This document shows positions 3,690-50,230 of a stretch of 64,000 nt of DNA, one piece after another. The DNA comes from an uncultured candidatus Brocadiaceae bacterium (GTDB lineage: Bacteria; Planctomycetota; Brocadiia; SM23-32), in NCBI GenBank assembly GCA_964510315.1, contig CAZEAP010000004.1:67092-131091 (forward strand). The letters are read 5' to 3'. The notes beneath the pieces were generated by a model that worked only from the letters and a program-made list of their open reading frames with translations, had not been told where the DNA came from and made no database searches. The position numbers and the translations under genes were made by a program. Position 1 is the first letter of the stretch; the number at the start of each line of letters is the position of its first letter.

Positions 3690-4586
3690 ATGCTGTCCAG
3701 CGTTGACCCGATAGGGAAGATTCAGCAGATCTACAGGGAGGGAGAGCGCCCCGTTCCCTACCCCATCTTCATGAGCGTGTTCAATGAGCTTCTAATCGAC
3801 GAGGTGGAAGTCGAGCCCAAAAAACCTTCCGAGGAGCTGAAGGAGAAGTTTCGGGCCGTCTGCATGGCCGTCCACGCCGGCGTTGCCGACCCGCTTGACC
3901 GGGGCGACCAACGGATCGAGGAGTTCTACGAGAAGATTCATCCCGTCTGGAAAGATGCGTTGGCCTCGGAGGAGTTCCAGAAATACGACCATATCCTGGC
4001 GGGCAAAATGCGGCAGAAGTTCCAGGGCAAGGCCGGCTCCGAAGAGGAGCAAGAAGTCCAGGCGGCTCCCGCCGGCTCTGAGAAGCTGTTCGAAAAGCTC
4101 GGCCTGGCCGAGGGTGCCGAAGCCGCCGCCGAGGAAGCCGCGCCGGCGCCCGGCGTGTCGCGTTTCGACACCATGGGGGAACTCGTCGCTGCCGCAAAAG
4201 AGGGTGAGCCACCTATCGACTTCGCTCCCCGTGGAGCCGAACGCGTCTGGGCACGATACGCCATCGAAGACCACGAGGTGGAAATCCGGCTCGCCCGCGC
4301 TGAGGAGAAACTTTACGTCGTGCTCCGGACCGACGTTGGCTACGATGCAATACCCGAGGCCGAAGTGCGGGTCACCGACTATGCGGCCGCCATGGGCTAC
4401 GTGCGTGCCATTGGCTTAACCTACCTCCGGCAGGACGATGACCTGGTCTGTACCCTGAAGGTCGCGCAGGACAGCCTCAGCATCGCATCCGGTCTCCCCG
4501 CCGATAGCTCCGATGAGGACGTGTTGGTCCAACTTCAAAGGTCGCATCGCGAACTCGGTGAACTCGTGGAGAACCTGGGAGGCTGA
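3690..4586 (+). CDS. Hypothetical protein
   Basis: 298-aa ORF with GGAGG RBS and coding-like codon use; no family recognised. Confidence 0.75.
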   Translation: MLSSVDPIGKIQQIYREGERPVPYPIFMSVFNELLIDEVEVEPKKPSEELKEKFRAVCMAVHAGVADPLDRGDQRIEEFYEKIHPVWKDALASEEFQKYDHILAGKMRQKFQGKAGSEEEQEVQAAPAGSEKLFEKLGLAEGAEAAAEEAAPAPGVSRFDTMGELVAAAKEGEPPIDFAPRGAERVWARYAIEDHEVEIRLARAEEKLYVVLRTDVGYDAIPEAEVRVTDYAAAMGYVRAIGLTYLRQDDDLVCTLKVAQDSLSIASGLPADSSDEDVLVQLQRSHRELGELVENLGG

Positions 4587-4636
4587 GGCCCGGCCGCCCG
4601 CACGCCACTCAACTCCCCTTTCGCTGGAAGCAACCC

Positions 4637-5914
4637 ATGCCCTCGCGCGTGAGCATAATATCAACCGGCCAGGAGCTGGTCCTCGGGCGCACGCCGGACA
4701 CCAACGCCGCTTTCCTGGCCTCCGAACTGTCCGGCAGGGGATTCGAGGTGCTCCGCCTGGCGGCCGTCGGCGACACGCCCGGCGCCCTGCGGGCGGAGCT
4801 GCTGCACTGCATGCAGGAGGGCGACCTGGTGATTGTCACCGGCGGCCTGGGCCCTACAGGTGACGACCACACCTGCCAGGAGGTGGCCGACGCGCTCGAC
4901 CGTGAATTGGTGATGGACCAGGAGGCCCGCCGGGCCCTGACCGATCGACTCGAGCGTATCGGCGTTCAGGTCACCGCCGCTCAACTGAACCAGGCCCGCT
5001 TCCCGGCCGGGGCGAGCACCTTCCCGAATCCGCGGGGCACGGCGCGGGGATTTGCCTGCGCCGCCGACGACACCCGGGTCGTGGTCATGCCCGGGGTGCC
5101 CTCCGAGATGAAGGCCATGTTCGGCGCGAGCGTGCTCCCGTTCCTCACCGCGAAGTTCGGCTCCGAACCCGCCGTTGCCTCCGAGTCGGTCCACATCTTC
5201 CCCATCTCCGAACCGGAGGCCGACCGGCGGCTGGAGGGGATGACGGAGGCCGGCCGGAACCCGTCGGTCGGCATAACCGTGCGCGACGGGGTGATTACGA
5301 TCGGCCTGCGGGCCGTCGGCGACCATGGTGAACACGCGGAGGAACTGCTCGAACGGGACCTGGAGTTCCTCGAGGACCGTTTTGGTGACCTGATCTTCGG
5401 ACGCGGGGAGACTACGCTGGCCGGCGCTCTCAGCCGGGAGCTGGAGCGGGCCGGGCGGACCGTAGCCGTTGCCGAGTCGATCACCGGGGGGCTCATCGGC
5501 CACATGCTGGTGAACGTGCCCGGGATATCGCGCTTCTTCCTGCTGGACGTGGTCGCATATTCCAATGACGCGAAAGTCCGGCAACTGGAGGTGCCCCGCG
5601 CCGAGATCGAGCGGCACGGCGCCGTAAGTCCCGAGGTCGCCGAGTCCATGGCTCGGGGCGCCTGCGCCGCCGCGGATGCGCAACTCGCTCTGAGCACCAC
5701 CGGTATCGCCGGACCCACCGGCGCCACCCCTCAGAAGCCCGTAGGACTGGTTTATTTCGGGGTCTGCCTGGAAGGGGAGGTCAGGGCCCTTAAGCTCAAC
5801 ATCCGGGGCGACCGCCGGCGGGTGAAGGATCGCGCGGCGAAGCACGCCCTGAACATGGGTCGCCTGGCGCTGCAGAATGGGGTAGACTTTCTGGAACAGT
5901 ACCCTAAAATATAG
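4637..5914 (+). CDS. cinA: CinA family protein (molybdopterin-binding domain plus NMN deamidase domain)
   Basis: GQEL..G...DTNA, TGGLGPT.DD, PGVPSEM, AESITGG, STTGIAGP. Confidence 0.93.
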   Translation: MPSRVSIISTGQELVLGRTPDTNAAFLASELSGRGFEVLRLAAVGDTPGALRAELLHCMQEGDLVIVTGGLGPTGDDHTCQEVADALDRELVMDQEARRALTDRLERIGVQVTAAQLNQARFPAGASTFPNPRGTARGFACAADDTRVVVMPGVPSEMKAMFGASVLPFLTAKFGSEPAVASESVHIFPISEPEADRRLEGMTEAGRNPSVGITVRDGVITIGLRAVGDHGEHAEELLERDLEFLEDRFGDLIFGRGETTLAGALSRELERAGRTVAVAESITGGLIGHMLVNVPGISRFFLLDVVAYSNDAKVRQLEVPRAEIERHGAVSPEVAESMARGACAAADAQLALSTTGIAGPTGATPQKPVGLVYFGVCLEGEVRALKLNIRGDRRRVKDRAAKHALNMGRLALQNGVDFLEQYPKI

Positions 5915-34191: not shown

Positions 34192-34290
34192 GAAGTACAC
34201 GGCCCGAGGCTTTGTAATTGGAGACCATAGCGGCCTGTTGAGAAGCCGGACCCGATCCCCGTTCCTGAGCAGGCTCCTGGAGGAGTGCGT

Positions 34291-36456
34291 ATGTCGCGTC
34301 CGGCGTCCCTGGCGGTACCCGGTCTTGCGGATGTTCTGGAGCTGCGTCTGCCGGCCGAGCTGAAGTCCCTCCGCGACACGGCCCGCAGACGCCAGCAGCA
34401 AGAGCACGGCCGGTGCGTCGAGCTGACACTCATCGACGCCCGTAGCTGGGCGGAACACACCGACGACGAGCCGTGGCTGATGTGGCGCGCCCGAAGGACC
34501 GCCGCGCGCCTGGAGGGAATGCCCATTCACCTGGAGCCGGGCGAGACGATCGTGGGCAGGCCCCTGCTGCGAACCCCCGCCGCGGCGGAGGAAGGTCCGC
34601 TGGATGAGGCCCGAAAGGCACTCGAATCCATGCCGCCGTTCCCCGGCGGCGATCCAGGTCATTTCCACCCCGACTACGAGAAGCTGTTCCATCTCGGTAT
34701 CGGCGGCATACTCGACGAAATCCAGGAACGCGCCGCCGCCGAAGGGGAACAGCGGGTTTTCTACGATGCCTGTCGCGTCGCGATGAACGGCATGGCGACC
34801 TACGTCCTCCGTGTCGGAGAGGCATGCTCCGGCATGGCCGAGTCGGACCGCGAGCACGAAGCGACGTGGCGAGACCTCGCCGAGATGTGCCGCCGCCTGG
34901 CCTCCGAGCCGCCCGCCACGTTCCACGAGGGCCTTCAGCTCATGTTCCTGGCTCAGATAGCTCTGTGGTTCGGGGACGGGCACGCACTGACCAGTCCGGG
35001 ACGCGTGGACCGGACGCTGCGGGGTTTCTACGAGGCCGATTTGGCCGCCGGCAGACTGACGCATCGCGAGGCGCTGGAGCTGCTGTGCTGTCACTTCATC
35101 CAGATGAACCGCATTCTCTGGCCCGGCTCCGCCATAGCGGTGCTGCTCGGAGGGCGGGACGCCGCCGGGCGGGACGTAACCAACGAGCTGACCTACCTGT
35201 GCCTGGCCGCTCGCGCCGCTACCGGGCTCGTCTATCCGACGGTCGCAGTTGCCTGGCACGAGGGCACGCCGGATGAGCTGATGGACTTCGCGGTCCGGAT
35301 GCTCGGAACCGGAATCGGCGATCCGGCCCTCTTCAACGACGAAGTCATCGCGGAGGGCCTGCGCGACCACGGCGTCGCGGAGGGTGACCGCCACAACTAC
35401 GTCAACTCCACCTGCGTCGAGATCAAGATCGCCGGCGCCTCCAACATCTGGGTGACCCAGCCTTACTTCAACTGCCCCGCGGCGCTGCTGGCGGTCATCG
35501 AGCGGGCTGCCGAGGAGCCGGAGAAGGGGCCGGCGACGTTCGATGAGCTTTCGGCGCAGGTCAAGGACGAACTGGCGAGGAGAATCGCCGAGGCGGCCGA
35601 ACGCCTGGACGACCTCTGGCGCCGCAGGGCCAGGCACGGCTGCTTCCCGCTGGCAAGTTGCCTCATACGAGACTGCCTGCGGGAGGTCAGGGACTACGAC
35701 CGGGGCGGGGCGCGCTACAACTGGGTCGAGAACTCGTTCGTCGGGCTCGCCAACCTTGCGGACGGTCTGCTGGCGGTCAAAAGGCTTGTCTACGAGGACG
35801 GGGAACTGACCCCGGCGCGCCTTCACGAGATACTTGAGGCGGACTTCGAGGGCCACGAAGCCCTGCGACAGAGGATCCTTCACGAACTTCCCAAATACGG
35901 CAATGACGTTGACGAGGTCGACCGGCTGGCCGTCGAGTTCGCCGAGTTCCTTATCGAGCGCACCGAGAGACACACGGTCGGCCCGCATCGCTACGTGCCG
36001 GGATTCTTCTGCTGGGTTCAGCACGAACGGCTCGGCTCGGGGACCGGCGCCACCCCGGACGGGCGCAGAGCGGGGCTGCCGCTGGCCAACGGGGCCGGGG
36101 CGGCCCAGGGCAGGGAGATGAACGGGCCCACGGCGGCGGTCCTCTCAGCGACGAAGTGGAGCCACCAAGCCGTCCTCGGCGGGCTGGTGCACAACGCCCG
36201 GTTCGCACAGTCGATGTTCCGCACCGAGTCGGACAGACGGGCGGTGCGCGACGTGCTGGAGACCTACCTGCGTCGGGGAGGCTTCCAGGTGCAGGTGAAC
36301 GTCGTCGGAACCGAGGACCTTCGTGATGCCCAGCAGCATCCGGAGCGCCACCCCCACCTGCTGGTCCGGGTTGCGGGCTACTCCGACTACTTCACGCATC
36401 TGAATCGCAACATGCAGGACGAGATCATCCGCCGCACCGAGTTCGAAGCAATCTGA
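34291..36456 (+). CDS. Glycyl radical enzyme (PFL-like superfamily, unassigned subfamily)
   Basis: C-terminal LVRVAGYSDYF glycyl motif, active-site STCVE, TPDGRRAG.PL. Confidence 0.92.
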   Translation: MSRPASLAVPGLADVLELRLPAELKSLRDTARRRQQQEHGRCVELTLIDARSWAEHTDDEPWLMWRARRTAARLEGMPIHLEPGETIVGRPLLRTPAAAEEGPLDEARKALESMPPFPGGDPGHFHPDYEKLFHLGIGGILDEIQERAAAEGEQRVFYDACRVAMNGMATYVLRVGEACSGMAESDREHEATWRDLAEMCRRLASEPPATFHEGLQLMFLAQIALWFGDGHALTSPGRVDRTLRGFYEADLAAGRLTHREALELLCCHFIQMNRILWPGSAIAVLLGGRDAAGRDVTNELTYLCLAARAATGLVYPTVAVAWHEGTPDELMDFAVRMLGTGIGDPALFNDEVIAEGLRDHGVAEGDRHNYVNSTCVEIKIAGASNIWVTQPYFNCPAALLAVIERAAEEPEKGPATFDELSAQVKDELARRIAEAAERLDDLWRRRARHGCFPLASCLIRDCLREVRDYDRGGARYNWVENSFVGLANLADGLLAVKRLVYEDGELTPARLHEILEADFEGHEALRQRILHELPKYGNDVDEVDRLAVEFAEFLIERTERHTVGPHRYVPGFFCWVQHERLGSGTGATPDGRRAGLPLANGAGAAQGREMNGPTAAVLSATKWSHQAVLGGLVHNARFAQSMFRTESDRRAVRDVLETYLRRGGFQVQVNVVGTEDLRDAQQHPERHPHLLVRVAGYSDYFTHLNRNMQDEIIRRTEFEAI

Positions 36457-39907: not shown

Positions 39908-39975
39908 ACGAACAGTGTACCGACGGCCTTACTGCACAGATGGGGTCCCAGGTTGGTATATGGAGAAGGGCTCAC

Positions 39976-42810
39976 ATGGCACGCGGAAAAAGAAAAGGCA
40001 AAGAGAGCTGGCCCGAGGACTACAGGCATCCGGAGGCCGACAGCCCGATGCGGCCGGAGGTGGGGACGCAGGCGCAGTTCCGGAAGAAGAAGGAGCCGCA
40101 GACGTACCGGTACGACTCCTCGCTTGCGCCGGAGATGAACTGGGACGGGCAGAATCCGGCGCGCGAGCTGGGCGAATGGCTTCTGGCCTGCGTGGAGGAG
40201 GCATCGGCCCTCGAGCCGCCTCACCGATTCCCGGAGCCGCGCACTTTCCGGTCGTCGGACGGCGGGATCGTCGAGAGCGTGGACGGGCTGCACGAGGCCG
40301 TCGCCAAGCTCAAGGCCCTGGGTGAGCCCTTCCTGAACTGGGCGGGCAAGGCGGAACGGCTTTCCTTCGACGTGCCGACGCTGCCCCTGTTCGTGCACGA
40401 GCGGCTGAGTACCCACGCCATTATTGAGACACTCAAGGGCCATCGGAAAGACGAGGGCGCGCAGCAGTTGGAGCTCTTCGCTGACCCGCAGCACCCCGTC
40501 TCAGACCAGGTGCTGAAAGCCTACGAGTATCGGGACGACTGGGTGAACCGTCTGATCCTCGGCGACAGCCTGGTCGTGATGAACTCCCTGCTCCACTACG
40601 AGGGGATGGGCGGCCAGGTGCAGATGATCTACATGGACCCGCCCTACGGGGTGAAGTTCGGCAGCAACTTTCAGCCCTTCGTGCGCAGCCGGGACGTGAA
40701 GCACAACGATGACGATTCGCTGACCCGCGAACCGGAGATGGTCCAGGCCTACCGTGACACCTGGGAACTGGGGCTGCACTCCTATCTGTCATACATGCGT
40801 GACCGTCTGCTCCTTTGCCGCGAACTGCTGCACCCGTCGGGCAGTGTGTTCGTCCAGATCGGGGACGAGAACGTGCAGCATGTTCGCGAGGTCTTGGATG
40901 AAGTCTTTGGACCCGACAACTTTTGCTCGCTGATAGCATTCGTGAAGACAGGTGGTTTCAGCCCTACTTTGCTTCCAAACGTTGCGGATTATCTCCTCTG
41001 GTATGCGAAGGACAAAGAACGTGTGACATACCGGCAGCTTCATCAGAGGAAGGACCCGGGCGAAGAGGGAGCCACTCAGTACACGTATGTCGAAGACCCT
41101 GACACCGGTGAAGTGCGCTCAATGACCCAAGAAGAGAGGCAAAACCCAAGCGTGGTCGCATCGACCCATCGGGTTCTCTGCCACGACAACCTGACTGGTC
41201 AGGGGGCATCGGGGAACACGGACCCGTTCGAATGGGAGGGAAAGGTCTTCGAACTGCCTGCCAATAGCCATTGGAAGACGACGACCGAGGGACTGCAGCG
41301 TTTGGCCGAAGAAAACCGGTTGATAGCTATGGGTGACACCCTTCGGTACAAGCGGTATCTCGATGACTTCCCCGTATATCCAATTTCGAACGTATGGACG
41401 GACACGGCGATCAGCGGTTTCGCGGAGAAGAAGACCTACGTCGTCCAGACGAACCCGTCCGTTGTCGAGAGATGTATGCTCATGACAACGGACCCAGGCG
41501 ACCTCGTGCTCGATCCCACCTGTGGAAGTGGCACGACGGCCTATGTTGCTGAGGAGTGGGGCCGGCGCTGGATTACAACTGACGTCAGCCGGGTGCCCCT
41601 GGCGCTGGCGCGGCAGCGGCTACTGACGGCGACTTTGCCCTGGTACCGGCTTCAGGAAGAAGCACGCGGTCCAGCTGGAGGCTTTATCTACGAGCAGAAG
41701 CAAGACGACATCGGGCGCGAGATAGGAGGGATTGTCCCTCACAAGACGCTCAAGGCCATCGCCAATGCCGAGGAACCGGACTACGAGGTGCTTGTTGACA
41801 AGCCTGAGCGAGACAGTGGCGTCACGCGAGTTAGCGGGCCCTTCGTTGTAGAAGCGACGATTCCCACACCTGTCGACTGGGACGCCGACGGCGAGGAGGA
41901 CTCCGGTGTGAATATGGCGGAGCGAGGGGCGTTCCTCGACAGAATGCTCGAGGTGTTGCGGAAGAGCCCCGTCCTCCACCTGGAGGGTAACCGGGCGGTG
42001 ACGCTCAAGAACGTGCGTCTGCCGGCCAAGTCGCTTTCGCTCTCCGCCGAGGCAATGGTCAGCCCGAAGGACCTGGGGCCTCCGGAGACGCTGGAGGACA
42101 TGAAGGAGCAGGCACTGGACGATGCCGGCGGACGGCTGCCGTTCAACGATCAACCGGTGGCCATCGTGTTCGGCCCCGAGAACGGCGCCGTCAGCGAGAA
42201 GCTCGTCTTCGAAGCGGCCCGCGAGGCCCACGTCAAGGACTACGCCCACCTGTTCGTGATCGGGTTCGCCATCCAGCCGAACGCCCGCAAGCTGGTCGAG
42301 GACTGCGCAGAGGCCGTCGGCGTTCCCGCCAGCTACGTGCAGATGACGCCCGACCTGGTGATGGGCGACCTGCTGAAGAACATGCGCTCGAGCGAGATCT
42401 TCAGCGTCTGCGGCCTGCCGGAAGTCGAGGTGCGCGCGGCCGGCGACGGCAAGTACGAGGCCGAGCTACTGGGCATGGATACGTTCGATCCGGCCACGAT
42501 GAAGACCGAGCACCGGGACGGCGACGACGTGCCGGCGTGGTTCCTGGACACCGACTACAACGGCCTCTGCTTCCACGTCTGCCAGGCATTCTTCCCGCGC
42601 ACGCGGGCCTGGGACAGCATCAAGAAGGCGCTGAAGGGCACGCACGATCCCGAGGTCTGGGACCACCTGGCCGGCACGAGGAGCGCACCCTTTGAGGCCG
42701 GAGAGCACGGCCAGATCGCCGTGAAGGTCATCGACGACCGCGGGAACGAGCTGTTGGTGGTCAAAGATCTGGAGGATGCGCGCACCGAAGGAGAGAAGGA
42801 TGGAGCGTGA
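39976..42810 (+). CDS. mod: Type III R-M methyltransferase (Mod), beta-class amino-MTase with long C-terminal extension
   Basis: IYMDPPYG (motif IV) before DPTCGSGTT (motif I); upstream of Res helicase. Confidence 0.9.
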   Translation: MARGKRKGKESWPEDYRHPEADSPMRPEVGTQAQFRKKKEPQTYRYDSSLAPEMNWDGQNPARELGEWLLACVEEASALEPPHRFPEPRTFRSSDGGIVESVDGLHEAVAKLKALGEPFLNWAGKAERLSFDVPTLPLFVHERLSTHAIIETLKGHRKDEGAQQLELFADPQHPVSDQVLKAYEYRDDWVNRLILGDSLVVMNSLLHYEGMGGQVQMIYMDPPYGVKFGSNFQPFVRSRDVKHNDDDSLTREPEMVQAYRDTWELGLHSYLSYMRDRLLLCRELLHPSGSVFVQIGDENVQHVREVLDEVFGPDNFCSLIAFVKTGGFSPTLLPNVADYLLWYAKDKERVTYRQLHQRKDPGEEGATQYTYVEDPDTGEVRSMTQEERQNPSVVASTHRVLCHDNLTGQGASGNTDPFEWEGKVFELPANSHWKTTTEGLQRLAEENRLIAMGDTLRYKRYLDDFPVYPISNVWTDTAISGFAEKKTYVVQTNPSVVERCMLMTTDPGDLVLDPTCGSGTTAYVAEEWGRRWITTDVSRVPLALARQRLLTATLPWYRLQEEARGPAGGFIYEQKQDDIGREIGGIVPHKTLKAIANAEEPDYEVLVDKPERDSGVTRVSGPFVVEATIPTPVDWDADGEEDSGVNMAERGAFLDRMLEVLRKSPVLHLEGNRAVTLKNVRLPAKSLSLSAEAMVSPKDLGPPETLEDMKEQALDDAGGRLPFNDQPVAIVFGPENGAVSEKLVFEAAREAHVKDYAHLFVIGFAIQPNARKLVEDCAEAVGVPASYVQMTPDLVMGDLLKNMRSSEIFSVCGLPEVEVRAAGDGKYEAELLGMDTFDPATMKTEHRDGDDVPAWFLDTDYNGLCFHVCQAFFPRTRAWDSIKKALKGTHDPEVWDHLAGTRSAPFEAGEHGQIAVKVIDDRGNELLVVKDLEDARTEGEKDGA

Positions 42811-43114: not shown

Positions 43115-43509
43115 GCCATGAGTCACAGGATCTGTGGGCGCGTGCGGTGGAGGCATTAGGCGTTGCGCAGAGGGAGGCAGCGCTGAGCCCGGACGCCTCG
43201 GCGTCGCGTGCTTACTACGCGGCCTTCCATGCCGTATCCGCCCTCTTTGCCACGAGAGGCGAGAGCTTCAGGCGACACTCGGCAGTGGAAGCGGCCGTGC
43301 ATCGCGACCTGGTGCGCACGGGGGATTTGAGCAAGGAGTTGGGCGCGGCCTACAGCGCGTTGCTGAGGTTGCGCGAGGTGGGAGATTACGGCGGGGCACG
43401 CCACGTGAGGGCCGACCAAGCACGCGAGGCGGTGGGCGATGCCCGGAAGATTCTTGCGGCGGTCAGTGAGCTGAAACCGGATGAGTTCCACATGCCGGAA
43501 AAGGAGTGA
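43111..43509 (+). CDS. HEPN domain protein (toxin partner of MNT)
   Basis: SRAYYAAFHA, RRHSAV, LREVGDY. Confidence 0.9.
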   Translation: MSHESQDLWARAVEALGVAQREAALSPDASASRAYYAAFHAVSALFATRGESFRRHSAVEAAVHRDLVRTGDLSKELGAAYSALLRLREVGDYGGARHVRADQAREAVGDARKILAAVSELKPDEFHMPEKE

Positions 43510-43513
43510 AGGC

Positions 43514-46500
43514 ATGGCCGACTTCGAGGTGCCGGAACCGATCCTGAATACCCCTTACGAGGAGCCGCAGCAGTACTGGTTCATCCGTGAGGGCGAGTCG
43601 CCGGAGCAGCGCGAGGGCAGACGGCCTTCGGTGGTCTATCCGCCGAGTGACACGCCGGTGAAGTGGAGCATCGAGCCGGAGATTCTGCAGCGCTCCGAGG
43701 ACTTCGCTCCCGGTTACGAGATGGTGCTTGTCAACCTGGTCCGGGAGCGGCGCAAGCAATGGCGGGCCGACGGGTGTCCTGGAGTGACGCGAGTCAGCAA
43801 GGAACTGATGGAGTGGTGGCACCGGGCCGGCCGGAAGACGCCGCTCTGGTTCGCGCAGCTCGAGGCGGCCGAGACGGTCATCTTCCTCACCGAAGCCCGG
43901 CAGGATTACCTGCAAGGCATCGACGTTCCGCTGGACGAGCCCAACCCGAGCCAGAAAGAGGAAGGCATCAAGGCTTTCCTTCGGTATGCCCTGAAGATGG
44001 CAACCGGCGCGGGCAAGACGACGGTGATGGGGATGCTGGCGGCCTGGAGCATCTTGAACAAGGTGAACAACCGGTCGGATGCTCGGTTCTCCGACGTGGT
44101 CCTGATCGTCTGCCCCAACATCACGATCAAGAACCGGCTGCAGGAACTGGACCCCGAACAGGGCGACGCCAGCCTGTACCGCACGCGCGACCTCGTGCCG
44201 CCGCACCTGATGCCCCAGCTCAGCCAGGGCAAGGTCATCGTAACGAACTGGCACCTGTTCCAGTTGCAGGACCCCAGCGCCGGCGACCCCGCCAAAGTGA
44301 AGAAGATCGGCGTCAAGGTAGAGAAGCTGGACACCGTCTACATCCGTGACCGAACAGACACCTATCGCGGCTATCGCTACCTCACGTTGGAGGACTACGA
44401 GCAGCAGGTGGCGACGGGGATGCTGACGGTGCGGGAGGAGTATCGCGACAGCAGCGGCAACCTGGAGAAAGCCGACGTCGTGACCACGAAGTACGTGGAG
44501 AGCGACACCGCGTGGGACCGGCGCGTGCTGGGCCAGGAGATCGGCGGCAAGCAGAACATCCTGGTGATGAACGACGAGGCCCATCACGCCTACCGTATCC
44601 GGCGCGGGGAGGAGGAAGAGGAGACCGAGGAAGAGACCTTCGGGGAGGAGAGCGAGGCCGAGGAGTTCTTCACCGAAGCGACGGTATGGGTGGAGGGCCT
44701 GGACCGCGTCCACAAGATGCGGGGCATCAACTTCTGCGTGGACCTGTCGGCGACGCCTTACTACCTGGGCCGTGTGGGCCAGGAGACGAACAAGCCTTTC
44801 CCGTGGGTCGTGAGCGACTTCGGGCTCACTGACGCCATCGAGTCGGGGCTCGTGAAGATACCGCAGCTCGCGCTGCAGGACCCGAGCGGCGAGGAGCGGG
44901 CGGCTTACTTCAACCTCTGGAAGTGGATTCTGGACCAGCTCACGTCTCGCGAGAAGGGCGGCACGAAGGGCAGTCCGAAGCCGGAGGCGGTGCTGAAGTA
45001 CGCCCACCATCCGATTGCGATGCTCGGCGGTCAGTGGGAGGAGACGCGGCAGGTATGGAAGCGCAACGAGGACGACGACCGCCCGCCGGTCTTCATCATC
45101 GTGTGCAAGAACACGAAGATCGCCGAGGTGATCTACCAGTGGCTGGCCAACGGCGAAGCGCCCGAGGGGATTCCGACGTCCGGGATCGACGCGCTGCGCA
45201 ACACGGACGGCCGCGAAAACACGGTCCGGATCGACTCGAAGGTGGTGCACGAGACGGATAGCGACCACGCGAAGAGCGACCTGGACGCCTGGATGCGGCT
45301 GACGCTGGACACGGTGGGCAAGGAGCAGTGGCCGACTGACTCGCAACGCAGGCCCATCTACCCGGAGGGATTCGAGGAGTTGGCGAACAAGCTGGGCAAG
45401 CCACTACATCCGCCGGGACGGGATGTCCGTTGCATCGTGAGCGTCGGCATGCTCACGGAGGGATGGGACTGCAACACGGTGACGCACATCGTGGGGTTGC
45501 GGCCCTTCATGTCACAGCTTTTGTGCGAACAGGTTGTCGGCCGCGGCCTGCGGCGCACGAGTTATGAGGTGGCCGAGAACGGGAAGCTCACCGAAGAGGT
45601 GGCGCAGATCCTGGGTGTGCCGTTCGAGGTCGTGCCCTACAAGGCCGCGCCGGAGGGGCAGCCCGCGCAGGTCAAGGAGCGGAAGCATGTGCACGCGCTG
45701 CCCGAGAAGGCCAGGTACGAGATCACGTTCCCGCGCGTGGACGGCTATACGCAGGCTATCCGGAACCGGGTTACTGTGGACTGGGATGCGTTGCCGCGGC
45801 TTCGGCTCGACCCGGCCCAGATCCCGCCGGAAGTGCGGATGAAGGCGACCGTGCCGAGCAACGAGGGCCGGCCATCTCTGTTCGGCCCTGGCGGCGAAGT
45901 CCAGATTGACCTCAATCCGTACCGCGAGGGGCGCCGAATGCAGGAGCTTGCGTTCGAAATGGCTGCGGCGATGACGAAGGAACTGGCGAACAACCCCAGG
46001 TGCAACGTGCCGACGCACGTGCTGTTCCCCCAGACGCTGGGCATCGTGCAGCGGTACTTGGCAGAGAAGGTCGATCCCGTGCCGCCCGCCGAGAGAATTG
46101 ATGTTGCCCTCTCGCCGTACTACGGGTGGGCTGTGGAGCGGCTGCGCGACGCGATCCGCGCGGACACGGGAGCCGGCGAGCCGCCGGAGGTGCCCCGTTA
46201 CGAGCAGCACCGCGGCCCGGGCTCAACGGACGAGGTGGACTTCTGGACCAGCCGGGAGGTCTGGACGCCGCAAAGGAGCCACGTCAACTACGTGGTCGCC
46301 GACACGCGGCGCTGGGAGCAGTCGGCCGCCTACCACATCGACAAGCACGATGCGGTGGATGCCTACGTCAAGAACGCGGGTCTGGGATTCGCCATCCCCT
46401 ACGTGCACAACGGCGAGCCGCATGACTACGTGCCCGACTTCATCATCCGGCTGAAGACGGATGGCGACGAGGAGCGCTACCTGATCCTGGAGACCAAGGG

Positions 46501-46666
46501 GTTCGACGAGTTGGAGGGCGTGAAGCGCGAGGCGGCCAAGCGATGGGTAGAAGCCGTCAATGCGGATGGTGCCTTTGGTCACTGGGACTACGCGACCGCT
46601 CACAGCCCTGGTGTCGTGATAAGTCTTCTTGACGAAGCAGTCAGAGCGGGCCTCGACGCGGGCTGA
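43514..46666 (+). CDS. res: Type III R-M restriction subunit (SF2 ATPase plus PD-(D/E)xK nuclease)
   Basis: MATGAGKT, NDEAHH, LSATP, VGMLTEGWD, QVVGRGLR, YVPDF...LETKG. Confidence 0.92.
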   Translation: MADFEVPEPILNTPYEEPQQYWFIREGESPEQREGRRPSVVYPPSDTPVKWSIEPEILQRSEDFAPGYEMVLVNLVRERRKQWRADGCPGVTRVSKELMEWWHRAGRKTPLWFAQLEAAETVIFLTEARQDYLQGIDVPLDEPNPSQKEEGIKAFLRYALKMATGAGKTTVMGMLAAWSILNKVNNRSDARFSDVVLIVCPNITIKNRLQELDPEQGDASLYRTRDLVPPHLMPQLSQGKVIVTNWHLFQLQDPSAGDPAKVKKIGVKVEKLDTVYIRDRTDTYRGYRYLTLEDYEQQVATGMLTVREEYRDSSGNLEKADVVTTKYVESDTAWDRRVLGQEIGGKQNILVMNDEAHHAYRIRRGEEEEETEEETFGEESEAEEFFTEATVWVEGLDRVHKMRGINFCVDLSATPYYLGRVGQETNKPFPWVVSDFGLTDAIESGLVKIPQLALQDPSGEERAAYFNLWKWILDQLTSREKGGTKGSPKPEAVLKYAHHPIAMLGGQWEETRQVWKRNEDDDRPPVFIIVCKNTKIAEVIYQWLANGEAPEGIPTSGIDALRNTDGRENTVRIDSKVVHETDSDHAKSDLDAWMRLTLDTVGKEQWPTDSQRRPIYPEGFEELANKLGKPLHPPGRDVRCIVSVGMLTEGWDCNTVTHIVGLRPFMSQLLCEQVVGRGLRRTSYEVAENGKLTEEVAQILGVPFEVVPYKAAPEGQPAQVKERKHVHALPEKARYEITFPRVDGYTQAIRNRVTVDWDALPRLRLDPAQIPPEVRMKATVPSNEGRPSLFGPGGEVQIDLNPYREGRRMQELAFEMAAAMTKELANNPRCNVPTHVLFPQTLGIVQRYLAEKVDPVPPAERIDVALSPYYGWAVERLRDAIRADTGAGEPPEVPRYEQHRGPGSTDEVDFWTSREVWTPQRSHVNYVVADTRRWEQSAAYHIDKHDAVDAYVKNAGLGFAIPYVHNGEPHDYVPDFIIRLKTDGDEERYLILETKGFDELEGVKREAAKRWVEAVNADGAFGHWDYATAHSPGVVISLLDEAVRAGLDAG

Positions 46667-46989
46667 GGCCGAAGTCCCCCATCGTAGCACCCTTTCAGTG
46701 TGCCCCTTGCTTCCCTCACGAGTTCCTTCTTTCGCGATTTCTTCGCTTCCTCCTCGCCGAATGGTCGCTTTCGGCCACCGTGGCGCGGATTTTTCGGTTC
46801 TCAGAGGGCTTCTGGTGGGGCCAGAGACCGGCGAGAGGAATCGGTTGCCCCTGTAGTGCCCAACCCGGACACGCCCCGGGCGCCGAACGGCTACAATAGC
46901 CGCGCTCAACGGTCCTGCTAACCGCGGAGGACGCAGAGTTACGCAGAGTTAACGACGGAGGGACAACGAACGACGAACAGGATTCCCCC

Positions 46990-47058
46990 AACGGCTGGAC
47001 AACCCGGCAACACAACATCCGGGAACCCTGTGCTGCCTACTGACTACTGACTACTGAC
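46990..47058 (+). repeat. 69-bp direct repeat, copy 1
   Basis: AACGGCTG(G/A)ACAACCCGGCAACACAACATCCGGGAACCCTGTGCTGC(CTACTGA)3C; one mismatch to 48455-48523. Confidence 0.97.
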
Positions 47059-47064
47059 CCTCAC

Positions 47065-47356
47065 AAAAATGATCGGCAAAAGCAGGGCGCCCTGAAAGGG
47101 CGCGACATATTCGTTCAAGACATGTCGCCATGTACCGGACGAGGCCCGGCTGCCCGGCGTATGTCTCGCCCCTACAGGGCTCAACTATTTGGGGGTGGAC
47201 CTGTACCCCCAGGGCTATGCCCTGGGCTGTGTATGTCACGCCCCTGCGGGGCTGCGATGTGTGATATACCGCGTTGCCCGGGTCGCTCTGGACGCTGAAC
47301 ACGTACGGCCAGGATGGCCCGGCACTGACTACTGTCTACTGACTACTGTCTACTGA
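47065..47356 (+). repeat. REP/REPIN-like hairpin cassette, copy 1, ending in 5 heptamers
   Basis: GCGCCCTGAAAGGGCGC, GCCCCTACAGGGC, CCCAGGGCTATGCCCTGGG, GCCCCTGCGGGGC; about 260 bp near-identical to 48645-48906. Confidence 0.93.
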
Positions 47357-47393
47357 CGTACCCGTTTACCGTGGACGCTTTGGGAGCGGTCCA

Positions 47394-47690
47394 CTGCCCG
47401 GCATCCGGCCACTGGGCTCTGTAAGAGCCCGACATACCAGCCCAGGGCGGAGCCCTGGGAAAAATGATCGGCACAAAAAGCCAGGGCGCCCTGAAAGGGC
47501 GCGACATATTCGTTCAGAAAGACATCTCGCCGTGTACCTGCCCGGCGTATGTCTCGCCCCTACAGGGCTCAACTATTTGGGGGTGGACCTGTACCCCCAG
47601 GGCTATGCCCTGGGCTGTGTATGTAACGCCCCTGCGGGGCTTCCATGTGTGATATCCCGCGCACTCCGAGCAGGGATGCTCGCGCTACAG
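47394..47690 (+). repeat. REP/REPIN-like cassette, copy 2, with both inverted arms
   Basis: 66-bp module 47394-47459 (GGGCTCTGTAAGAGCCC, CCCAGGGCGGAGCCCTGGG) identical to 48579-48644, followed by the shared cassette from 47460. Confidence 0.93.
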
Positions 47691-47696
47691 GGCCGG

Positions 47697-47850
47697 CTAC
47701 TGACTACTGACCACTGACCACTGACTACTGGCCACTGGCCACTGTCTACTGTCTACTGACCACTGACCACTGGCCACTGGCCACTGTCTACTGACTACTC
47801 TCTACTGACTACTGTCTACTGACCACTGTCTACTGACTACTCTCTACTGG
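47697..47850 (+). repeat. Heptamer tandem array, 22 units of C(T/C)ACT(G/C)(A/T/G)
   Basis: Counted unit by unit; ends 9 nt before ATG 47860. Confidence 0.98.
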
Positions 47851-47859
47851 AGTAAAGCC

Positions 47860-48390
47860 ATGAACGGAGGCAAGCCGAGGGTTTCGCGACGTCAGCTCGT
47901 CGCCAACCGACGTAACGCAACAAAGGGCGGTCCCAAAACGCCGGAGGGCAAAAAGAAGTCCAGCCGCAACGCGCGTAAACACGGCATCTTCGTCGAAGCC
48001 CTCACCAACGACGACCGGGAGGAGCTGAGCGACCTCCACGAGCGGTTCGCCGAGGACCTCCAGCCGACCGGTTCCGTCGAGGAGACCCTGGTGGAGAAGC
48101 TGGCGGTCTGCTACCTGCGGCTCCAGCGCTGCGCCCGGGCGGAGGCCGAATACCACCACGCCACGTGGACGCCCGTCCCCCCGAAAAAGCGCCGCAGGTG
48201 CCTGAACCCCGGCAGCTACTTCAAGTCCGGCCCCTTCAGCCGGATCGTCAAGCTGGTGCAGCGATACGACACCTCGATCACCAACCAGTTCCTGAGGGTG
48301 CTCCACGAGCTGGAGCGGCTGCAGCGGATCCGCCGCGGCGACAACGTCTCGCCCCCGGTGACGGCCGACGTGCACGTGACCGGTTCGTGA
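47860..48390 (+). CDS. Hypothetical protein of the 'ANR.NA..GP.T.EGK..S..NA.KHG' type
   Basis: 176-aa ORF with GGAG RBS and coding-like codon use; N-terminal motif recalled from uncharacterised proteins of planctomycetes/acidobacteria. Confidence 0.85.
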   Translation: MNGGKPRVSRRQLVANRRNATKGGPKTPEGKKKSSRNARKHGIFVEALTNDDREELSDLHERFAEDLQPTGSVEETLVEKLAVCYLRLQRCARAEAEYHHATWTPVPPKKRRRCLNPGSYFKSGPFSRIVKLVQRYDTSITNQFLRVLHELERLQRIRRGDNVSPPVTADVHVTGS

Positions 48391-48454
48391 GTCGTCAACG
48401 GGGGTCACCACGAAGAGCACGAAGGGACACGAAGAACGAAGGAGGAGGAGGACG

Positions 48455-48523
48455 AACGGCTGAACAACCCGGCAACACAACATCCGGGAACCCTGTGCTG
48501 CCTACTGACTACTGACTACTGAC
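48455..48523 (+). repeat. 69-bp direct repeat, copy 2
   Basis: Matches 46990-47058 with one mismatch. Confidence 0.97.
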
Positions 48524-48578
48524 TACCGTCTTTCGTTCAGGTTGACAGACATGTCGGCATGTACCGGACGAGTCCCGG

Positions 48579-48902
48579 CTGCCCGGCATCCGGCCACTGG
48601 GCTCTGTAAGAGCCCGACATACCAGCCCAGGGCGGAGCCCTGGGAAAAATGATCGGCAAAAGCAGGGCGCCCTGAAAGGGCGCGACATGTTCGTTCAAGA
48701 CATGTCGCCATGTACCGGACGAGTCCCGGCTGCCCGGCGTATGTCTCGCCCCTACAGGGCTCAACTATTTGGGGGGTGGACCCGGGTCCCCAGGGCTACG
48801 CCCTGGGCTGTGTATGTAACGCCCCTGCGGGGCTGCGATGTGTGATATACCGCGTTGCCCGGGTCGCTCTGGACGCTGAAAACGTACGACCAGGATGCCC
48901 CG
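48579..48902 (+). repeat. REP/REPIN-like cassette, copy 3
   Basis: 66-bp module plus about 260-bp cassette matching copies at 47394 and 47065. Confidence 0.93.
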
Positions 48903-49056
48903 GCACTGTCTACTGTCTACTGACTACTCTCTACTGACTACTGTCTACTGACCACTGTCTACTGACTACTGTCTACTGACTACTGGCCACTGGCCACTGT
49001 CTACTGCCTACTGGCCACTGGCCACTGACTACTGACTACTCTCTACTGACTACTGA
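48903..49056 (+). repeat. Heptamer tandem array, 22 units
   Basis: Counted unit by unit (first unit GCACTGT); same unit family and orientation as 47697-47850. Confidence 0.98.
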
Positions 49057-49489
49057 TTGCTGACCCCCGGTTACGAAACGAACCCATTTTCCCGCAGGGC
49101 ATACGCGGGGAAGCACTTACGACACAAAATCCAAATCGGCGTACGGAGCCGGATGTATACGCGAAACCACAGAAAGGACACTTTTGGCTTGCCGCGTCCG
49201 GACGGCCGGGCGGCGGCCATGGCCTCCCGGCAGGACCTTCAGCCGCGGGAGATCGACGTCCGGCGGCTGCAGGAGCATCTGGTAGAGATCGGGAACCTGC
49301 CGGCCGCCGTATCCTCTCCGAATACCGGTGCGACCTGCGCGGCCTGTTCGCGCGTCACGCCGAGTGGGTTCTGGGCCAGAGGACGGAAGAAGGCTGATGC
49401 GGTTGCCCGGCAGGGCCGCTGCTATTACACTGCGAGGCCGGATCCGCGCAAATCAATAATTGACCGAGCAGGTCACGGAAGGAGAGAGG

Positions 49490-50230
49490 ATGGGAATCGG
49501 ATACCAGGACACGCCGCTGATTCCGGGGACGAACTGGCACGTGCACGACGGCGAGCGGCCCCAGCCGCCCGTAGCCAGCCCCACAAACCTTGGCGAGATC
49601 GGCCCGGTCCTGCCCCCGGGGGATGCGGTGGTGCTGTTCGACGGCTCGGACCTGGAGCAGTGGGAGTCGGCCAAAGACGGCGGAGCGGCGGAGTGGGAGA
49701 TCATTGGAGACGCCATGCGGGTCGTCCCCGGCACGGGGGGCATCCGCACCAGGCGCAAGTTCGGCGACATACAGTTGCACGCGGAATGGGCCGCGCCGGC
49801 CGAGGTGAAGGGCGAGAGCCAGGGCCGCGGGAACTCCGGCGTCTTCCTGATGGAGCGTTACGAGATACAGGTGCTGGACTGCTACGAGAACCCCACTTAT
49901 CCCGACGGCACCACCGGCGCCGTTTACGGGCAGTATCCGCCGCTGGTCAACGCGTGCGTCCCGCCGGGGAAGTGGAACACCTACGACATCCTCTGGGAGG
50001 CGCCGGTCTTCGAGGGCGAGGAGGTGGCGAAGCCCGCCTTCGTTACCGTCCTTCAGAACGGCGTTCTGCTGCACAACCACGTCAGGCTCATGGGGCCGAC
50101 CGGCCACAAGATCGTCCCCGAATACACCCCGCACGAACCCGAGGGAAGCATCTCCCTGCAGGACCATGGGGACCTGGTGAGCTTCCGCAACATCTGGGTC
50201 CGCGAACTCAAAGGCTACGACCAGGGCTAA
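49490..50230 (+). CDS. DUF1080 (3-keto-disaccharide hydrolase-like) protein
   Basis: LFDGSDL..W, FGD.QLH.EW, GNSGVFL..RYE.QVLD, W..YDI, LQDHG..V.FRNIW; GGAG RBS. Confidence 0.93.
   Translation: MGIGYQDTPLIPGTNWHVHDGERPQPPVASPTNLGEIGPVLPPGDAVVLFDGSDLEQWESAKDGGAAEWEIIGDAMRVVPGTGGIRTRRKFGDIQLHAEWAAPAEVKGESQGRGNSGVFLMERYEIQVLDCYENPTYPDGTTGAVYGQYPPLVNACVPPGKWNTYDILWEAPVFEGEEVAKPAFVTVLQNGVLLHNHVRLMGPTGHKIVPEYTPHEPEGSISLQDHGDLVSFRNIWVRELKGYDQG

Follow-up and report, generated by a model that had tools for sequence, protein, structure and literature searches.

In this report, I discuss a locus within a 64,000-nt stretch (hereafter the window) of contig CAZEAP010000004.1 from an uncultured candidatus Brocadiaceae bacterium, where an open reading frame for a small basic protein (ORF 47860-48390) is flanked by two same-orientation (+ strand) copies of a composite non-coding module, and where a short box, which recurs behind homologues of the gene, follows the second copy (Table 1). 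Each module runs, in the order given by the initial annotation of this DNA, from purine-rich short repeats through a 69-nt block and hairpin cassettes to a heptamer array, and the single mismatch reported there between the two 69-nt blocks is also borne out (46990-47058 vs 48455-48523). The accompanying statement that all parts are near-identical holds for the blocks and for the cassettes (95-99%) and fails for the purine-rich stretches, which are alike in style and different in sequence. Similarly, nested-hairpin cassettes do lie on both sides, two of them on the left, whereas the right side has a complete cassette and a partial one, put together as a recombinant of the two left ones; the arrays, counted as 22 units each, have 22 on the left and 23 in circularly permuted order on the right; and the left array, said to end shortly before the ATG, abuts the start region of the gene by running into the GGAG about 10 nt before that codon.

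Cassette A and its right-hand copy (47065-47361 vs 48645-48941) are 95% identical across 298 nt, and over 75 nt the 3' end of the left array and the 5' end of the right array are 96% identical. Both arrays are mixtures of ACTGACT, ACTGACC, ACTGTCT and ACTGGCC, with higher-order periods of 14 and 42 nt, the second of which Tandem Repeats Finder also reports, and the array pattern has 34 matches where dinucleotide shuffles of the window lead one to expect 0; by the same shuffles, two 26/27-mers of the cassettes, present in three copies each and all at this locus, are likewise expected 0 times. No further copies of the cassette, the 69-nt block or the array were found in the rest of the window. 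Circular permutation of one array against the other is a signature of unequal exchange and, taken together with the high identity, indicates either that the event is recent or that exchange still goes on, so the recent duplication or homogenisation proposed in the initial annotation on account of the high identity and shared orientation stands. The duplication itself is an ordinary mutational event.

The gene had also been described as an orphan, which it is not: a word-indexed search returned 427 relatives of the window protein, the nearest of them 63% identical, and a HMMER scan with a profile built from 25 members puts the family at 41,060 clusters at 50% identity with E <= 1e-3 (23,339 at E <= 1e-10). 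Named relatives come from Planctomycetota metagenome-assembled genomes (MAGs) labelled Brocadiaceae or Brocadiia, the invariant residues of the family include K40, H41, E74, R90, E95, Y136 and R153, and the AlphaFold model (predicted local distance difference test score 79) consists of five helices, including a long helical hairpin, and no sheet. Searches of Pfam, NCBIfam, PHROGs and PADLOC with the window protein gave nothing significant, the sole PADLOC match, to Cas8g at E 0.036, being at chance level; a permissive Pfam scan of the 25 family members gave nothing consistent; none of the Pfam and NCBIfam scans, the permissive one included, found a recombinase or transposase domain in the family protein; and neither a PDB profile search nor Foldseek against PDB nor BFVD returned a significant match to the protein or its model. 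A phage small terminase (TerS) was tried as an identity and rejected (PHROG E 0.08; Foldseek against HK97 TerS E > 4; BFVD E of at least 0.3). Also, tblastn gave no family match in phage records, and among 72,556 plasmid records there were three weak family matches, none with the box. In one subfamily, a KTSC-domain gene of 63-65 aa ends 4 nt 5' of longer (294-297 aa) family members (L018 3799-3996 and L159-L161 2305-2496; the L numbers designate loci used for comparison) and may form a conserved two-gene operon with them. In L015 (799-3458) and L016 (968-3485), the family gene is preceded by a similar divergent four-gene cluster that includes a PDDEXK_1 nuclease.

Comparison of homologue loci on the gene strand, 3' of the stop codon, gave a box with the consensus forms TTGCRAAACGAACCCAWT, WTTTTGCRAAACGAACCCAWTTT and TTGCGAAACGAACCCAAT, present 7-700 nt past the stop in at least 23 of 26 homologue loci and, in all but one, co-oriented with the gene. 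In 13 of 15 loci, the exact string AAACGAAYC is found on the gene strand no more than 1.5 kb past the stop, where some 0.01 occurrences per locus would be expected, and it has no second copy in those 15 loci or in the window; with up to three mismatches allowed, the box is found in 20 of 21 loci and in five further ones, inverted in one of the five. Distant homologues (31-40% identity, GC 0.51-0.59) also have it, 7-140 nt past the stop (L015, L018, L031, L034 and L157-L160, and inverted in L162), and the family gene together with the box was found in contigs with GC 0.51-0.67. Conservation is confined to positions -3 to +19 of a non-palindromic sequence, so that the box is an element of about 22-24 nt. 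In the window it lies 681 nt past the stop codon, directly after the right heptamer array, and the locus has the arrangement of the family, a normally co-oriented box within about 700 nt of the gene. For neither the box nor the protein family was a description found in Pfam, NCBIfam, PHROGs, PADLOC, Rfam, PDB or such literature as could be searched, and a literature search by box sequence returned nothing relevant.

Several more familiar identities of the box were tried and rejected. A sigma-70 promoter is contradicted by the lack of a conserved -10 element, by an information content of zero beyond +19 and by a promoter scan of the locus that came back empty, and a sigma-54 or extracytoplasmic function (ECF) promoter by spacing and a -24 element that are, judged by eye, unsuitable. 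The putative start codon of a micro-ORF beginning in the box is not conserved; as a fragment of a tRNA or tmRNA attachment site, it would lack the equivalent of T-loop A58, and ARAGORN found none; and fewer than 10% of boxes have the inverted partner of an attC site, of a miniature inverted-repeat transposable element (MITE) end or of a terminator hairpin. Box-bearing loci give Rfam matches only to group II introns and tRNAs, with one box instance in the flank of a Soil-1 alignment that looks coincidental. Lastly, the 10 viral matches to a 16-mer of the box are about what chance would provide.

The loci differ in what separates the gene from its box. Compact loci have 7-60 nt there, and the window, L004, L001 and L009 have long repeat-rich DNA. 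Repeats flanking homologues, as the initial annotation would have predicted, were found in the form of strong bracketing in one of the 14 genome-contig loci (L004), where the gene lies between its own, unrelated direct repeats of 150-320 nt, again within the gene-to-box unit. Two tandem boxes occur in L006 and L034. In L002, the closest named homologue, an 88-nt repeat stands upstream of the gene in three or more tandem copies, spaced by about 100 nt, and an N-run (4569-4668) lies inside these repeats. The non-coding modules differ by lineage, the box alone being shared. No k-mer is robustly shared by the tandem arrays of different loci, and only ACGAA 3' of the gene, partly due to the box itself, stood out in the k-mer comparison. 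Furthermore, L008 and L011 are syntenic, with flanks of 88-93% identity around a unit of 83.5%, from which it follows that the unit is vertically inherited in that lineage and evolves faster than its flanks. The leaders of L008, L011 and L034 (e.g., L034 4700-4960) hold box-like repeats of about 21 nt (CTGCGAAACGCACTC) and TATAAT, as well as CAGATGAAC decamers, after which their inverted complement comes (CATCTGTGG TTCCAAACGTTT), so that a long hairpin is possible; related CATCTGCGTT decamers occur in L003 and L004. A gene at L004 3186-3943, which from its translation reads as a four-helix-bundle protein of the 23S rRNA intervening-sequence type, has CGCCCACGGA decamers on its 5' side; its coding sequence contains TCCGTGCCCG decamers, nearly complementary to the former, and a fragment resembling the HsdR N-terminus comes after the gene.

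Now considering that the right module lies between the stop codon and a box found family-wide, the repeats are internal to the unit and do not bound a mobile element, and the best reading of the bracketing is an internal segmental duplication as opposed to the ends of a transposon, an integron cassette or a guide-RNA system. The explanation that I favour, with a probability of about 0.5, is that the leader was duplicated in situ within an undescribed gene-plus-site module. The conserved unit would be the gene for a small basic helical protein and a box of about 22 nt shortly past its stop, usually in the orientation of the gene; the leader, a non-coding stretch (69-nt block, cassettes similar to repetitive extragenic palindromes (REPs), and ACTGNYY array), repeat-rich and presumably prone to slippage, would have been copied in place, probably by unequal recombination, template switching or slippage, and the copy would now separate the stop codon from the box. 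If the two modules then recombined with each other, the gene would be lost and a module with the box at its end would remain, which is the layout of the gene-less islands described below. On sequence grounds, I infer that the family protein binds nucleic acid and has the box, perhaps also the short arrays, as its cognate site, with autoregulation or site-marking as the putative role of the box, and that, given the occasional inversion of the box, binding is more likely at the level of DNA than of RNA. Gene-less boxes would be either sites that serve in trans or what is left once recombination between flanking repeats has deleted the gene.

Table 1. Coordinates of features at and around the repeat locus in the window, and of intron matches at two box loci.
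Feature	Position	Strand	Remarks
Left purine-rich short repeats	46925-46985	+	ACGCAGAGTT x2.1, followed by repeats of the ACGAAC type
69-nt block, copy 1	46990-47058	+	terminal CTGACTA x3.7; 99% to 48455-48523, 1 mismatch
Hairpin cassette A	47058-47357	+	3' end ACTGACT/ACTGTCT x4.9 (47324-47357); fold z-score -2.5
Acido-Lenti-1-like motif in cassette A	47208-47253	+	30.9 bits
Hairpin cassette B	47394-47696	+	83-nt head (47394-47476), then diverged A-like body
Weak Acido-Lenti-1-like match in cassette B head	47415-47459	-	
Acido-Lenti-1-like motif in cassette B body	47596-47641	+	33.1 bits
Left heptamer array	47697-47852	+	22 units ACTGNYY; 14- and 42-nt higher-order periods
Shine-Dalgarno GGAG	47849-47852	+	continuous with left heptamer array; about 10 nt 5' of ATG
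ORF, 176-aa basic all-helical protein	47860-48390	+	N-terminal ANRRNA..GPKT.EGK..S.NA.KHG
Right purine-rich short repeats	48400-48454	+	CACGAAGAG x2.8
69-nt block, copy 2	48455-48523	+	terminal CTGACTA x4.1
Right hairpin cassettes, whole stretch	48532-48904	+	
Partial cassette start, right side	48532-48587	+	
Right copy of 83-nt head	48579-48661	+	99% to 47394-47476
Right A-like cassette	48638-48904	+	Acido-Lenti-1-like motif 48789-48834, 34.2 bits
Right heptamer array	48905-49065	+	23 units; circularly permuted relative to left array
Family box	49071-49088	+	TTACGAAACGAACCCATT, 1 mismatch to consensus TTGCRAAACGAACCCAWT; sole copy in 64 kb
Small hairpin after box	49091-49109		
Type III restriction-modification methylase, N6_N4	39940-42810		956 aa; upstream of locus
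Type III restriction-modification Res, ResIII + endonuclease	43481-46666		1061 aa; directly upstream of locus
3-keto-disaccharide hydrolase gene	49460-50230		downstream of locus
L051 intron match, RF02005	758-981	-	
L111 intron matches, RF02005; RF00029	2081-2301; 424-498	-	

A scan of short metagenome contigs with an 18-mer of the box gave at least 80 loci (GC 0.41-0.70), and among the matches listed no neighbour but the family gene recurs strongly (21 of 80), the next in frequency being small helix-turn-helix (HTH) genes of the XRE type (3-5 of the 80). In L051, L055, L058 and L063, and in the viral contigs L020 and L028, such XRE-type genes end in ...FIDENGGGPGVRLRK with the box 20-30 nt later, and they also adjoin family members in L157, L158 and L162. 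Gene-less islands with several boxes, interleaved with varied tandem arrays of 6-12 nt, were seen in L048, L072, L077, L092, L104 and L113. In L092, purine-rich 9-mers (CACGAAGGA) are 91% identical to window positions 48405-48437, and L113 has ACTGGCC-type heptamers in the opposite orientation; L092 377-1200, itself gene-less, holds five boxes, some of them variant, along with duplicated modules and CCTCGAC-type tandem repeats. In L051 and L111, a group II intron of the D1-D4-6 type (RF02005 and RF00029) begins with GTGCGCC immediately after ...AAACGAACCCAAT, and since the upstream flanks of the two loci differ, it can be concluded that the box serves as an intron homing site.

A number of these and other observations count against the in-situ duplication of a gene-plus-site module. 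About 70% of the boxes among the matches listed have no family gene within 1.5 kb, so the box may be a general element that the gene merely adjoins, and the search for decayed remnants of the family gene near gene-less boxes gave two weak matches only; moreover, of 21 loci found by the motif first, about 7 have the box in inverted orientation or on the 5' side of the gene. One piece of evidence for a local origin of the repeats, the density of tandem arrays of period 6-12, which close to boxes (300 nt) and to family genes (800 nt) is 5-6 times that in the rest of the same loci, is uncorrected for coding versus non-coding DNA. The recurrent matches to small terminase in PHROGs, PDB and BFVD are non-significant. 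Short-read assembly is prone to errors with arrays as long as these (about 155 nt) and with 300-nt repeats that are 95-99% identical, so the unit and copy counts given here are counts as assembled. The box lies within 100-300 nt of a contig end 1.6-2 times more often than uniform placement would have it, and this, together with the toxin-antitoxin, defence and mobile genes near homologues, fits some form of mobility. Individual contigs end or begin exactly at a box (L034 5757-5841, L042 1-160), one of them, of 153 kb, after the second of its two boxes, which suggests that assemblies break at the box element.

A broader proposal, which I put forward tentatively, is that the protein and its 22-nt box may constitute an unrecognised cross-phylum system in which the protein would bind the box sequence-specifically, gene-less sites would have been seeded by the system, and the bound complex would destabilise its surroundings, with replication stalling or nicking at the bound box giving rise to the tandem arrays and local duplications nearby. 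This would make it a loose counterpart of Tus-Ter or of REPs and their associated RAYT transposases. Like tus-TerB and the small terminase-pac pair, the family has a gene accompanied by an asymmetric site of about 22 nt, of which further copies lie elsewhere; unlike them, it lacks a phage context, and its similarity scores are non-significant (E of at least 0.08).

The remaining alternatives are all unlikely, the least so being an RNA-based system in which the modules would be transcribed as structured or repetitive RNA acting with or on the protein or its translation, whether as tandem hairpins similar to the Acido-Lenti-1 motif, as a heptamer "sponge" or as the repeat RNA of a system like the type III toxin-antitoxins. 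A permissive Rfam search provided three + strand matches to Acido-Lenti-1 (RF01687) at 30.9-34.2 bits, below the gathering cut-off of 37, with E-values of 5e-4 to 4e-3 window-wide (1.7e-5 for the best one locally), and two weaker - strand matches of at best 22.8 bits; the matches align over the full length (1-46) with both stems paired, and the + strand copies are about 390 and 1190 nt apart. They resemble the motif in their 46-nt length, two hairpins, conserved GGCU linker and ...CU end, and in being multi-copy and tandem, as Acido-Lenti-1 often is at 70-200 nt spacing, and differ from it in being sub-threshold and embedded in larger cassettes of about 300 nt; by score they fall outside RF01687, and by their two hairpins, conserved linker and tandem, multi-copy arrangement they would belong. 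To my knowledge, Acido-Lenti-1 has been assigned no function. It was described by Weinberg et al. (2010) as multi-copy and often tandem in Lentisphaera araneosa, sometimes near group II introns in Lentisphaerae, with Koribacter versatilis and the planctomycete Rhodopirellula baltica also in the seed (PMC2864571, supplementary file 183).

Also in favour of an RNA-based system, upstream tandem repeats are frequent among family members, box and gene run in the same direction in more than 80% of loci, and the left array abuts the Shine-Dalgarno sequence in the manner of the TAACTGA repeats proposed for translation control (PMC4679880). However, the three copies are too alike for covariation, and the motif is missing from the 14 homologue loci, making it a lineage-specific component and not the conserved partner of the family, so that of the structured RNA paired with a nucleic-acid-binding protein in the initial annotation, the presence of the structured motif is what survives. 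Across loci, the repeat period varies from 6 to about 390 nt, ill-suited to a single RNA-protein complex, and the fold z-scores are about -2.4 on both strands. As in ToxIN, tandem repeats stand immediately 5' of a gene for about 170-180 aa, with defence or toxin-antitoxin genes as neighbours. Measured against the type III systems ToxIN, CptIN and TenpIN, with their tandem repeats of about 34-45 nt, the window has units of 7 or about 300 nt, a period that varies between loci, no + strand terminator between repeats and gene, and an all-helical protein without a ToxN or AbiQ fold or a significant PADLOC match.

Next in order, and improbable, is that genome-wide repeats of the kind of REPs, of bacterial interspersed mosaic elements (BIMEs) or of short tandemly repeated repetitive (STRR) sequences accumulated here by chance, the link with the gene being incidental. 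The multi-copy, often tandem Acido-Lenti-1 seed copies in Lentisphaera araneosa and the missing motif in the homologue loci are in line with this, as is the standing of heptamers as the most common long simple-sequence repeat in prokaryotes, at least as Mrazek (2007) is cited in MacGregor (2015). The latter author described TAACTGA repeats, in up to 43 copies, before start codons in Beggiatoaceae, cyanobacteria and Bacteroidetes, with a proposed and untested role in translation (PMC4679880). The heptamers of the window are a variant of this TAACTGA/STRR kind: they are tandem, direct, intergenic and forward, end within a few nucleotides of the start codon, share an ACTGA/ACTG core, and run to tens of units for which an origin by slippage is supposed. 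They differ in their mixed ACTGNYY unit with a 42-nt higher-order period, in the second array 3' of the gene, in their host, a high-GC Planctomycetota MAG, and in being confined to one locus in 64 kb where TAACTGA/STRR repeats form genome-wide networks. Against chance accumulation, the remaining 61 kb hold zero other copies of any part, even of the Acido-Lenti-1-like motif at the permissive Rfam threshold; furthermore, repeat-rich flanks recur around homologues in many lineages.

More doubtful still is a true mobile or excisable cassette whose composite direct repeats are the recombination sites of an element moved in trans, as the initial annotation had supposed. Direct repeats of 95-99% identity do surround the gene, the boxes are enriched at contig ends and targeted by group II introns, which home to other repeated or mobile sites as well, and the contexts of homologues are variable, including toxin-antitoxin pairs, AbiEii, AIPR, PDDEXK, integrase and transposase genes alongside housekeeping genes; indeed, some horizontal spread of so patchy a family is likely, if not by way of the bracketing repeats. 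However, the right repeat lies inside the conserved gene-to-box unit, the repeats are lineage-specific with strong bracketing in 2 of 15 loci (the window and 14 homologue loci on genome contigs), synteny is preserved between L008 and L011, and the family is nearly absent from plasmids and absent from phages in the records searched. Near the locus, neither terminal inverted repeats nor attC-like pairing nor a recombinase was found, and the Pfam scan of the neighbours (34.3-53 kb) agrees with the earlier observation that no transposase, integrase or cas gene is visible. A non-autonomous element mobilised in trans is thus not upheld, and the excisable or amplifiable cassette survives in a weak form only, in which recombination between the modules would delete the gene, as the gene-less L092 might illustrate.

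Comparison with individual classes of mobile and repeat-associated systems leads to the same place. No terminal inverted pair bounds the unit and no transposase domain is found in the protein, which speaks against an insertion sequence or MITE, and no inverted box lies upstream in 21 loci. Integron cassettes and clusters of attC sites lacking integrases (CALINs) are alike in having a small gene followed by a conserved site, gene-less site arrays and toxin-antitoxin genes nearby, and attC is likewise a target of group II introns. An attC site consists of R'' (RYYYAAC) and R' (GTTRRRY) inverted cores in a bulged hairpin of 57-141 nt, served by IntI; the box has no such cores, reads ACCCAAT with AAT in place of the essential AAC, and has an inverted partner (at least 10 of 13 bases, within 150 nt downstream) in 5 of 65 cases as compared to 0 of 65 upstream, while no integrase was found near the locus and the family gene has its own promoter-like region. 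With REP/BIME elements and RAYT the likeness is an analogy only, in that a single gene sits amid clustered hairpin repeats and the short motif also occurs without the gene; unlike RAYT, the protein has neither an HUH/Y1 motif or fold nor a Pfam or NCBIfam match, its all-helical model has no PDB match, the modules are direct repeats, and the box is non-palindromic and present once in 64 kb. As for CRISPR arrays, in which identical repeats of 24-48 nt take turns with unique spacers, the repeat map has no repeat-spacer alternation, and no cas gene was found among the scanned neighbours. The gene-plus-box module appears to be new, and the locus fits none of the known systems compared, apart from the generic heptamer-array class and the sub-threshold likeness to Acido-Lenti-1.

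That metagenome mis-assembly created the duplicated module or the long arrays is very improbable, since the modules differ in structure, carry specific mismatches and are anchored in the unique sequence of a 135-kb contig, and an independent MAG (L004) has the same kind of bracketing, even if repeats of 95-99% identity with 155-nt arrays are hard to assemble, the L002 tandem repeats contain an N-run, and homologue contigs often break near the box (e.g., L034).

With regard to the surroundings, the 250 nt between the Res gene and the first repeat (46667-46920) contain no detected feature, and ARAGORN found no tRNA in the window. A glycyl-radical enzyme gene with PFL-like and Gly_radical domains (34285-36456) is unrelated to the repeat locus.

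An ordinary duplication has here led to a pair that is not ordinary, an unannotated family of about 41,000 clusters almost always followed by the box. If protein and box are indeed cognate, they would represent a new and widespread gene-site system in environmental bacteria, would offer a candidate cause for the unexplained heptamer and STRR-type arrays, and would help to annotate thousands of genes now called "hypothetical", along with the DNA that flanks them.

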